A stretch of 64,000 nt of DNA from a virus. Below, piece after piece: positions 37,314 to 39,825 of the stretch (position 1 is its first letter; the number at the start of each line of letters is the position of its first letter). The notes beneath the pieces are model-generated. The model saw nothing but the letters and a program-made list of their open reading frames with translations, ran no database searches and was not told the origin of the DNA. The stretch spans positions 26,103 to 90,102 of IMG/VR virus record IMGVR_UViG_3300044684_000161; one strand, 5' to 3'. The position numbers and the translations under genes are program-made.

Positions 37314-37493
37314 CTACTCACGTTCGACGGTCCAGCCGTCCGGCGTTCGCTCTCGATCCGTTTCGGGGTTCTCCTTGAGCCGACGCATCGCGGCGCTCAC
37401 GTCGAGGAGAGGAACATTGCGTTCCGTGACGCCACCGGTGATGAGCTCGCCGTCAGCATCAAGGACACGATACGTCACAGGTGCGACGATCAT
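37314..37493 (-). CDS. Small hypothetical protein (59 aa, not in ORF track)
   Basis: ATG overlaps integrase stop; RBS GAGGAGG. Confidence 0.55.
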   Translation of the reverse strand: MIVAPVTYRVLDADGELITGGVTERNVPLLDVSAAMRRLKENPETDRERTPDGWTVERE

Positions 37494-38662
37494 ATAGCCT
37501 CCTCGGGCTGCCGGGCCCAGTTCTGCGTAATCACGCTGGCGACCGTATTGATTGCGCGCGCCTGATCGGTTGCGAGGCCGTGCAGGTAGCGTTCAGTCGT
37601 CGATAGCTGGCGGTGGCCGAGCATCGTCGCGACCTGCTTTTGCGTCAGGCCAGCCATATGCGCGAGCGAGCCGGCGGTGTGCCGCAGATCATGGATGCGC
37701 ATCTCCGGCGGCAACTCGGCGCGCTGCTTAATGCGCTTCCAGATGCCTTGCGGGTGCATCATGTGCTCGCCAGCAATGCGGCCCGGGATGAGCCATTTGC
37801 CTTCCTCGATGCCGTTGATAATCTCCATCGCTGCTGACGACAGGGCGATACGCCGCTGACCGACTTTGCTGTCCGGCAGCAGCAGCAGCGAGCGCTCGCG
37901 ATCGATCCATTCCTGTTTCGACGACATGATCTCGTTGAGGCGACAACCGGTGATCAGCAGCAGACGGATAAGGTCAGCCATCGACTTCATGATTTCGTGC
38001 TGCTCGACCATCTCGGTCAGCGTGGCGTCGAGGCGCTGGATCTGCTCGGGCGCAAGGATCGTCTCGCGCTCCCGGATTTTGTACTTTTTGATGTGGCGGC
38101 ACGGATTGCCATCCTTGCGCCACTTCCATAGGTCCGCAAGATTGAAGGCCTTGCTCAGCAGCGCGACGCAGGCATTCGCAGTCGCCGGGTGCTCGGACAG
38201 CGATCCCATGAGCGCCAACACATCGGCCTGTGTCACGCTGTCGACGCGCTTCTTGCCGAGTGCCGGCAGCACGTAGATGCGCCACAGTGCCTCGTCGCGA
38301 GCGACACTGCCGGCCTTCTTGAACGGCCGCGCGTGCTCCTTCATGTAGCGCTGCTCGAGATCGGCGACCGTGGGTGCTTCCTTGAGTTCGGTTTTTTCCA
38401 TCGCCGGGTCGCGGCCTTCGGCGACGGCGCCGAATATCTTGCGCGCGAGATCGCGGGCCTTGTCCGGCACGATGTCCGTGCAACGCCCGATTGTTTGCTT
38501 GCGCTGGATGCCAGCGTGTGTACGATACCGCGCGACGTAGGTTTTGCGGCCGCTGCTCTGGATGCGGACGCCGAAGCTCGGGAGTTCGTTGTCCCACAGC
38601 CACGCGTCACCCTTTAGAGGGGGCTGAGCGGCATCGACTGCGGTTTTGGTCAGCTTGGGCAT
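37490..38662 (-). CDS. int: Tyrosine integrase with N-terminal arm-binding domain
   Basis: TGCRLNE, SK, HDLRH, LGH, TERY catalytic residues. Confidence 0.95.
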   Translation of the reverse strand: MPKLTKTAVDAAQPPLKGDAWLWDNELPSFGVRIQSSGRKTYVARYRTHAGIQRKQTIGRCTDIVPDKARDLARKIFGAVAEGRDPAMEKTELKEAPTVADLEQRYMKEHARPFKKAGSVARDEALWRIYVLPALGKKRVDSVTQADVLALMGSLSEHPATANACVALLSKAFNLADLWKWRKDGNPCRHIKKYKIRERETILAPEQIQRLDATLTEMVEQHEIMKSMADLIRLLLITGCRLNEIMSSKQEWIDRERSLLLLPDSKVGQRRIALSSAAMEIINGIEEGKWLIPGRIAGEHMMHPQGIWKRIKQRAELPPEMRIHDLRHTAGSLAHMAGLTQKQVATMLGHRQLSTTERYLHGLATDQARAINTVASVITQNWARQPEEAI

Positions 38663-38689
38663 TTTGAAAGTTCTCCAGGGTGAGTGTGA

Positions 38690-38933
38690 TGCGCCCGAAT
38701 TTCCCGGGCGCAACTAGGGCGCAAAAGGGACATAACAAGCGTGATCTTCACTGATCTCCTGAGCCGCTGATAGACGGCTAAGTGGTTGGAATCGTGCAGA
38801 CTAATGACCCAACGTGAAGTTGCATGAAGCCCTATTTTTCACACTCAAAATCTGGTTGTCAACTCAAAAAAGATCAAGTTTTATGCGGTTGCAGCGAAGG
38901 CGAGACAGAATTTCGGGCGCAGGTCGGGCGCAA
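38690..38933. other. Putative attP
   Basis: GGGCGCA arm-like repeats at 38690 (inverted), 38706, 38717, 38915, 38926 flank CACTCAAAAT (38842-38851). Confidence 0.6.
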
Positions 38934-38969
38934 GATCAGACGGGAAGGACCGTGACGGTCCGTGAAGAT

Positions 38970-39056
38970 GCGAGAGTGGTGGAACTGGTAGACACACGGC
39001 ACTCAAAATGCCGCACCCGAAAGGGTATAGGGGTTCGACTCCCCTCTCTCGCACCA
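38970..39056 (+). tRNA. tRNA-Leu (CAA)
   Basis: GCGAGAG/CTCTCGC acceptor stem, CGGCA-CTCAAAA-TGCCG anticodon arm, long variable arm, GTTCGA, encoded CCA. Confidence 0.93.
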
Positions 39057-39063
39057 CGCGCCA

Positions 39064-39825
39064 TCACGCAGCCTTCTCTTCAGCCGGTCGAGGAAACAGC
39101 GACAACGCCTCATCGCAGTGTTTGAGGATCGACTCTGCCTGCCTTCGCAGGCCGTCGAGGCTTCCATATGTGCTGAGCACCCCAGCGGTCATGACGGCGT
39201 GCACAGCGCGCCCAACATGCTCCGCATTCCAGCTTTCGATCTTCACTCCACTGACGCGCTCAACCTCCTCGACGGCTTTGGTCAGCTCGCTGGCGCGGCG
39301 AGTGCGGAACTCAATCTCACGCACGATGCGCTGCTCGTCGCTCTGGCGTAACCGTTTGATCTCGGTGGCGACGGCCGATCGAACGATGTCCTCGTCGGCC
39401 GCGCTCGCTCGGCGCAGCATCGCCGCGACGAAGTCGCGTGTGACCGGCTGAGCTTCGAGCTTTGGTGCAGCGACGGACTGCCGCAGCGTCCCGCCCGGTT
39501 TCGCTTCGAAGTGTCCCCACGTCGGAGGTAACTCGCCCTCGGCAATAACGCCGGCCGGCGCGACGATCCACCAGCGGTCGCAGTATCGCTGCACCGGGGC
39601 CGATTTCTCAGGATTCTTCAGTTCGCGCACCCAGTCTGATCGGCTGGCCTTAAGCTCGAACCCGTGAATCTCGAGTCCGCGCGAAGGGAAGAGGTTGATC
39701 GCCACGGCGTCGGCCCAGCGGCGCTGATGTGCGCCGGTTGCGTCCGCTACCTCGAAGAAGAGCGCCCACTCCGGGGCGCAGAAGCGGGCCCGAAGCGCCG
39801 CCTTGATGTCGGGCGTCTTCATCAT
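39064..39825 (-). CDS. MmcB-like PD-(D/E)XK protein
   Basis: ADAV...GFELKASRSDW...CDRWW. Confidence 0.6.
   Translation of the reverse strand: MMKTPDIKAALRARFCAPEWALFFEVADATGAHQRRWADAVAINLFPSRGLEIHGFELKASRSDWVRELKNPEKSAPVQRYCDRWWIVAPAGVIAEGELPPTWGHFEAKPGGTLRQSVAAPKLEAQPVTRDFVAAMLRRASAADEDIVRSAVATEIKRLRQSDEQRIVREIEFRTRRASELTKAVEEVERVSGVKIESWNAEHVGRAVHAVMTAGVLSTYGSLDGLRRQAESILKHCDEALSLFPRPAEEKAA

Follow-up and report, generated by a model that had tools for sequence, protein, structure and literature searches.

Introduction

The satellite phage P4 carries an integrase of the same Pfam arm-binding family as the integrase studied here, and its target is the tRNA-Leu(CAA) gene leuX. The P4 crossover lies near the 3' end of leuX and the gene is rebuilt, unlike in the layout described below. 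Classical integration into the anticodon loop of a tRNA gene, reportedly set out by Williams in 2002, is accompanied by a duplicated 3' half of the gene.

A mode of integration termed tRNA-dependent lysogeny has been defined for actinobacteriophages (Guerrero-Bustamante and Hatfull, mBio 2024, PMC10865867). According to that report, it involves a tyrosine integrase and a common core of about 10 bp that attP shares with an attB in a tRNA gene; integration does not restore the tRNA, and lysogens are viable only with a phage tRNA of that isotype. Integration junctions were sequenced in that work for Fionnbharth (10-bp core, Lys-TTT) and Gaia (8-bp core, Leu-CAA), and integrating plasmids from Fionnbharth and Cluster L phages needed the phage tRNA gene to yield transformants. 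Prophages resembling Mesorhizobium phage vB_MloP_Lo5R7ANS in two Sinorhizobium meliloti strains are described as having inactivated tRNA-Leu(UAG) and as carrying a copy with the same anticodon (PMC11476347, PMC12429752). How common tRNA-dependent lysogeny is beyond actinobacteriophages is a question that the report on these phages itself raises (PMC10865867).

In this study, we analysed a 64,000-nucleotide stretch of phage DNA (the window) and, within it, the region 38690-39056. The three features by which tRNA-dependent lysogeny can be recognised in sequence were found together, namely an arm-type integrase with its repeats, a short core and a cognate tRNA. The mechanism itself is already published, and the present work extends it to a clade of large phages.

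Results

Phage genome, integrase and tRNA

The window comprises bases 26103-90102 of a 90,102-bp virus record, which has direct terminal repeats and is rated 100% complete. The sequencing runs in which it occurs are soil and rhizosphere metagenomes. The integrase encoded next to the studied region (Table 1) matches the Pfam families Arm-DNA-bind_3 (E 3.7e-14), Phage_int_M and Phage_integrase (E 1.4e-17). In an alignment of 33 integrases, residues R241, K266, H324, R327, H350 and Y359 were invariant, and we take these to be the catalytic residues of the tyrosine-recombinase motif. The start of the integrase gene (int) faces a 304-nt stretch without genes, after which the tRNA-Leu(CAA) gene follows. 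The neighbouring genes belong to replication and nucleotide metabolism (dUTPase, Dda-like helicase), and the nine nearby ORFs tested yielded neither a repressor nor an excisionase.

The tRNA-Leu(CAA) scored 54.8 bits against RF00005 (cut-off 29; model positions 1-71) and is the sole tRNA in the 90,102-bp genome. It begins 119 nt past the anticodon-loop copy described below and is co-oriented with the core. When it was used as a DNA query against four genomes holding relatives, only partial matches were obtained.

Table 1. Features of the region in the window, insert-bearing tRNAs of relatives, and relatives grouped by attP layout and anticodon.
Feature	Position or loci	Strand	Basis or remark
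Tyrosine integrase, 391 aa, P4-type	37490-38665	-	Pfam domains and alignment
Inverted GGGCGCA copy (fifth)	38690-38696	-	Repeat search
P-arm pair GGGCGCA-N4-GGGCGCA, putative arm-type integrase sites	38706-38723	+	Repeats, conserved position
Sigma-70-like promoter facing int, core in spacer	38834-38862	-	Consensus match only
Proposed attP core	38843-38857	+	Phage tRNA identity, bacterial tRNA-Leu(CAA) identity, conserved position between arms
P'-arm pair GGGCGCA-N4-GGGCGCA, putative	38915-38932	+	Repeats, conserved position
Complete tRNA-Leu(CAA), encoded CCA	38970-39056	+	ARAGORN; Rfam RF00005
Insert-bearing putative rescue tRNA-Lys(CTT)	L007:3405-3691 (also L008, L168)		Coordinates approximate
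Insert-bearing putative rescue tRNA-Lys(TTT)	L161:2375-2668		Coordinates approximate
Layout B, Leu-CAA	window, L005, L019, L025
Layout B, Leu-TAA	L187
Layout B, Lys-TTT	L002 (Aeromonas phage ST4), L017, L161		L002 core ACTTTTAAT
Layout B, Lys-CTT	L007, L167, L169
Layout A, Arg-ACG	L006, L011, L012, L082, L173
Layout A, Lys-CTT	L015, L165
Layout A, Leu-CAA	L022, L083
Layout A, Leu-TAA	L175
Layout A, Lys-TTT	L028

Arm repeats

The initial annotation of this region, made from the sequence alone, had described paired GGGCGCA repeats with 11-bp spacing on both sides of a copy of the anticodon loop. Both pairs are present at 38706-38712/38717-38723 and 38915-38921/38926-38932, 11 bp from start to start and all on the plus strand. 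Together with an inverted copy, they place five of the 29 GGGCGCA copies of the window within 243 bp, where about 0.1 would be expected from the window-wide density. The inverted copy recurs about 153 nt before the loop in L007, L167 and L169, that is, with the window, in 4 of the 11 loop-only loci described below. The pairs are predicted to be bound by the integrase. Because GGGCGC pairs also occur elsewhere in the phage genome, we use the label of integrase arm sites as a putative one; the assignment of the core is independent of it.

Seven such further pairs, of the form GGGCGC-N5-GGGCGC, were seen. Six are on the minus strand at G000:C1 3483, 5638, 9280, 12039, 17758 and 24410, in the first 25 kb and before the start of the window; they are mostly intergenic, and one of them, read in reverse complement, is identical to the P' pair. 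On the plus strand there is a single further pair, within an 874-aa ORF. The motif may belong to another protein, or its reader may act beyond attP. Pairs of a second motif, CGTGA(A/C/T), are located at 38813-38829 and 38944-38967 of the window and in the same places in L002, L005, L019 and L083. They stand 15-35 nt from the core on the int side, and again ahead of the tRNA in some loci, and may be sites for accessory proteins.

The core and its match to bacterial tRNA-Leu(CAA) genes

The 10-nt CACTCAAAAT was found at 38842-38851 and again at 39000-39009 within the tRNA-Leu(CAA), in agreement with the initial annotation. By itself this match is only modestly unusual: when the 307 nt upstream were shuffled by mononucleotides, 18 of 1000 shuffles matched the tRNA over the same length (p ~0.02). 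Since the 10-mer is weak alone, the case rests on relatives, in which the feature recurs at this position.

After the loop only TCTGGT(T) follows, with no T arm and no acceptor strand, and a search of 38600-39150 (E<=1) gave no second tRNA-like element. The 3' half that marks a classical attP is thus absent. Besides the anticodon loop CTCAAAA (38844-38850), the proposed core takes in the last base of the 5' stem strand, all of the 3' stem strand and one or two further bases. Accordingly, the earlier description of the core as the anticodon loop only was right about the missing 3' half and too narrow in extent, as the likely common core exceeds the loop and reads ACTCAAAATCTGGT(T) at 38843-38856/7.

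This wider core is found in real bacterial genes. The 14-nt ACTCAAAATCTGGT (38843-38856) is common to the window attP and bacterial tRNA-Leu(CAA) genes, and 15 nt are shared with the GGTT variants, so that the identity with the bacterial genes extends over 14-15 bp and that with the phage's own tRNA over only 10 bp. The anticodon stem of the phage tRNA, CGGCA/TGCCG, differs from that of the bacterial genes matched by the core. For the search, a 19-nt pattern with up to 3 mismatches was run against 401 genomes from the class of the Caballeronia genome mentioned below. This pattern also matched randomly, as a reversed-pattern control indicated, and we counted only the recurrent GACTCAAAATCTGGT class, which was present in at least 23 of the 401 sampled genomes among the 150 of 257 matches listed. 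Three GACTCAAAATCTGGT sites that were checked with ARAGORN (L260, L263, L264) are tRNA-Leu(CAA) genes.

A third ACTCAAAA occurs at 38862 and is not derived from the tRNA. Aeromonas phage ST4 has the TGTCAACTCAAAAA stretch of this place as well, although the loop copied in its core is that of a lysine tRNA.

The core also lies in the spacer of a promoter-like site facing int, with a -35 element TTGACA (38862-38857), a 17-nt spacer and a -10 element AAAAAT (38839-38834), in total 10 of 12 consensus matches. Sites of this kind with the loop in the spacer and at least 8 of 12 matches were seen in 9 of 11 loop-only loci versus 2 of 11 classical ones. Judged from this arrangement, integration would split the site and part the -35 from the -10 element.

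Relatives of the integrase

Among 8000 candidates scored, 1107 integrase relatives were obtained at E<=0.001, and many of the best are on contigs of 88-95 kb, a size like that of the window phage. Single-protein scans for integrase relatives in genomic and viral contigs gave no match. Loci were gathered with the alignment of 33 integrases (77 viral, 80 genomic and 79 metagenomic), and the 600-1400 nt upstream of int were read where the integrase was about 46% or more identical, plus three more distant loci; this reading leaves out the two closest relatives, P0002 (88% identity) and P0003 (87%). A contig present in two collections was counted once (L005=L162, L007=L168, L011=L171, L012=L013=L174, L010=L172, L022=L180, L083=L179, L003=L081), and L008, a near-copy of L007, was left out of the counts.

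The clade members are phages of about 90 kb from soil, compost and water metagenomes. One relative, Aeromonas phage ST4 (OR261032; 90,646 bp), has an integrase 61% identical to that of the window; our literature search found no paper naming it. ST4 (W01, OR261032.1) has three more tRNA genes clustered at 71343-71673, far from its attP. In the four closest loci that were read (L003, L004, L080 and L160; integrases 69-73% identical), int is accompanied by neither arm pairs nor a core nor a tRNA. L003/L081 is a contig of Caballeronia pedi LMG 29323 (49,207 bp), and in both L003 and L160 a palindrome of the TCAAATTTGA type is located directly upstream of int.

Two attP layouts in one integrase clade

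The att sites of the relatives showed two layouts, each in 11 loci. In layout A, which is classical, a complete tRNA 3' half stands between the loop and the P' arms. In layout B, to which the window belongs, there is a loop-only core, and the P' arms are closely followed by a whole tRNA.

Core and adjacent tRNA agree in their anticodon throughout layout B (11 of 11 loci, four different anticodons). In 10 of these loci they agree over all 7 nt of the loop, the remaining one being L187, with CTTAAAA in the core and TTTAAAA in the tRNA. The distances are also conserved. Counted from the first base of the loop, the P pair is at -138/-127, -139/-128 or -150/-139 in 10 of the 11 loci and the P' pair at +71/+82, +72/+83 or +73/+84 in 9, and the tRNA always stands 84-130 nt past the loop, on the same strand and on the side away from int. 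These comparisons come from a position-based table, which replaced a longest-common-substring test; that test was weak for some loci because their shared segment is the 7-nt loop only.

On the side of the P arms, the two layouts agree: the P pair of layout A is found at layout-B distances in 8 of 11 loci. The P' pair of layout A is further out, at +108 to +148, which leaves room for the 3' half. Since the loop has the same distance from the P arms in both layouts, the loop copy of layout B holds the place of the loop in a classical attP. In addition, the 11 classical relatives, with a loop and a 3' half at this same distance, indicate that integrases of this clade cross over in anticodon loops.

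In a maximum-likelihood tree of 39 integrases, layouts A and B are interleaved. Near-identical integrases can have opposite layouts, as in L007 (B) and L015 (A), with branches of 0.02 and 0.01, and in L165 (A) and L167 (B), with branches of 0 and 0.005. The DNA of L007 and L015 is 90% identical flanking the cassette, and the difference is confined to the stretch from the loop to the next gene.

Several loci showed other arrangements. L170, on a 7,969-bp contig, has a loop-only Lys-CTT core ACTCTTAATCAG and P' arms at +71/+82, with no tRNA in the 600 nt beyond; either its tRNA is located elsewhere or the host gene would be broken without a spare copy. In L018, L034 and L177, arm pairs surround a conserved core, GATAA.TG.CTCATTGT..., which is unlike any tRNA anticodon arm, and from this core we consider that the sub-clade probably targets something other than a tRNA gene. 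L176 was assigned to neither layout, and the rest of the loci read have no recognisable att site beside int.

Inserts in the adjacent tRNAs

With the intron option of ARAGORN, the tRNA-Lys(CTT) of L007/L008 was found to have a 211-nt insert in the anticodon loop, and the tRNA-Lys(TTT) of L161 a 219-nt insert. Against the Rfam group I intron model, the inserts scored 38.2 bits (E 2.7e-8) and 39.4 bits (E 1.6e-8), both under the gathering threshold of 50. Splicing would give the L161 tRNA a 14-nt match to its own attP core, the longest of the set. In ST4, a sister of L161, the tRNA has no intron and a different anticodon stem.

Search for integrated copies

We found no attL or attR for the window phage or for any loop-only relative in the genomic, viral and soil-run contigs searched. 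Among contigs from four soil runs, one spans the whole stretch, and none has a joint or a loose end at the core; runs with a small share of the sequence yielded only fragments of other organisms and carry no weight. Two exact-pattern scans of viral contigs gave no new junction. In 401 Burkholderiales genomes, a close integrase was present in one only, the already known Caballeronia pedi contig. The close relatives among genomic contigs are all on contigs of 49-95 kb, and those that were placed are on contigs of at most 98 kb, none of them chromosome-sized (P0070, whose longest contig is 121,868 bp, was left out). PLSDB holds no close relative, the best match being 40.6% identical, and thus these phages are not known as plasmids.

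To represent the integrated state, the att halves of the window were joined to one bacterial tRNA-Leu(CAA) gene. ARAGORN detected no tRNA across either model junction; the only one it detected was that of the phage, which begins 120 nt beyond the attL junction on its downstream side.

One integrated element was seen in a tRNA-Leu(CAA) gene, a 38.6-kb island of the classical type (G517:C1:1065143-1103752; L264, L265) with a 56-nt direct repeat starting at ACTCAAAA. It was rejected as a relative, as its integrase lacks the arm domain and shows only 26% identity across 142 residues.

Discussion

Based on the anatomy of the region and on the co-variation of core and tRNA in its relatives, we consider it probable that 38690-39056 is the attP of a temperate 90-kb phage together with a replacement tRNA, and that it works by tRNA-dependent lysogeny. 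In this mechanism, the P4-type integrase would bind both GGGCGCA pairs as its arms and the core at 38843-38857, and strand exchange with a host tRNA-Leu(CAA) gene would take place inside its 7-nt anticodon loop, CTCAAAA. Because the attP has no T arm or acceptor 3' strand past the loop, the host gene would end as two dead halves. The phage tRNA-Leu(CAA) would then follow the host promoter and 5' half at a distance of about 120 nt, oriented as they are, and would supply the lost function. Here we infer the point of crossover, the loss of the host tRNA, and the expression and necessity of the phage tRNA. The initial annotation had already proposed that the phage disrupts the host gene and complements it with its own copy; the anatomy it described is borne out by the relatives, while disruption and complementation are predictions, with the loss of the host tRNA a modelled one.

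The attP and the rescue tRNA could further form one compact, swappable cassette with three built-in features (read-through, promoter and attB protection), which we put forward tentatively and regard as doubtful. As the first feature, the host tRNA promoter and dead 5' half would be read into the co-oriented tRNA; in L005, L019 and L025 there is almost no space for a promoter of the tRNA's own. As the second, the int promoter would straddle the core, so that integration would remove its -35 element and alter int expression. As the third, the rescue tRNA would be barred from serving as a second attB by its differing anticodon stem or by a group I-like intron (L007/L008, L161).

On the other hand, the att-int module might be a relic, or be unused for chromosomal integration, in a phage that is effectively lytic or episomal. 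The tRNA would then serve translation or anti-defence against tRNA cleavage, and its position would be historical. No integrated copy was found in the contigs and genomes searched, the placed relatives are on contigs of limited size, the nearest integrases that were read have no att site beside int, and the flanking genes are those of replication and nucleotide metabolism, all of which would fit such a phage. An anti-defence role of phage tRNAs has also been raised (PMC10865867). However, the arm pairs, the position of the core and the anticodon of the tRNA have stayed together even where the integrase is only 52-61% identical to that of the window, which is not expected of a decaying relic, and the anticodon of the tRNA changes along with the core in 11 of 11 loci. 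In addition, the phage has no tRNA other than this tRNA-Leu(CAA), and no close relative is recorded as a plasmid. We therefore think it unlikely that the module has fallen out of use.

It is very unlikely, in our view, that the true crossover is inside the phage's complete tRNA and rebuilds whole genes, with the loop copy at 38842-38851 being, for example, part of the int promoter. The arm pairs flank the loop copy, and the tRNA is outside them, with the next GGGCGCA only at 39774. Moreover, the classical relatives have their loop and 3' half at the position of the loop copy and not at that of the tRNA, the stem of the phage tRNA is unlike the bacterial genes matching the core, and in L007 and L161 the loop of the tRNA is interrupted by an intron. 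These observations outweigh the facts that the phage tRNA has the same loop, that the loop copy sits in the spacer of a promoter-like site, and that a phage tRNA gene as attB has been speculated upon (PMC10865867). A chance resemblance, in which a 10-nt repeat in an A-rich promoter region would merely stand beside an unrelated tRNA gene, is scarcely credible despite the shuffle result given above and longest exact tRNA matches that lie away from the loop in L005, L019, L025 and L167 and overlap it partly in L187, since the anticodons agree in 11 of 11 loci at a fixed position and for four anticodons, and nine lineages paired randomly would all agree about 2 times in 10,000, a figure uncorrected for shared ancestry.

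Accordingly, we keep tRNA-dependent lysogeny as the preferred reading of this locus. The same design recurs in a clade of about 90-kb phages and with at least four tRNA species, and it is interleaved with the classical form among near-identical integrases. Since Aeromonas phage ST4 is in culture, the prediction is directly testable. For annotation, a lone tRNA beside an integrase can belong to the integration module and not be an aid to codon usage, and the prediction of attB by long identity fails for such phages.

[quoted passage not shown] Both sets include sisters of the classical form (Ximenita/Cain and Omega/Gaia in that report; L015/L007 and L165/L167 here), and both include Lys-TTT and Leu-CAA among their isoacceptors (PMC10865867). 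The hosts given in that report are Actinobacteria (PMC10865867), whereas the window clade includes phage ST4, isolated on Aeromonas hydrophila, and contigs binned with Paraburkholderia and Mesorhizobium, and has a P4-type integrase (Arm-DNA-bind_3). Furthermore, the tRNA of Fionnbharth and the Cluster L phages is described as located at another place in the genome, with a promoter of its own in Fionnbharth (PMC10865867), whereas here it always starts 84-130 nt past the core and is co-oriented with it. That system has been established by experiments, including a Leu-CAA case (PMC10865867), whereas the present reading comes from sequence comparison. The Sinorhizobium prophages are like the window in their proteobacterial host, central tRNA-Leu site and same-anticodon tRNA, and differ from it in their target, Leu(UAG), in having been seen integrated, and in belonging to another phage type, as far as these reports describe them (PMC11476347, PMC12429752). 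With classical anticodon-loop integration, finally, the window shares the location within the tRNA gene, whereas its attP has nothing past the 3' strand of the anticodon stem.
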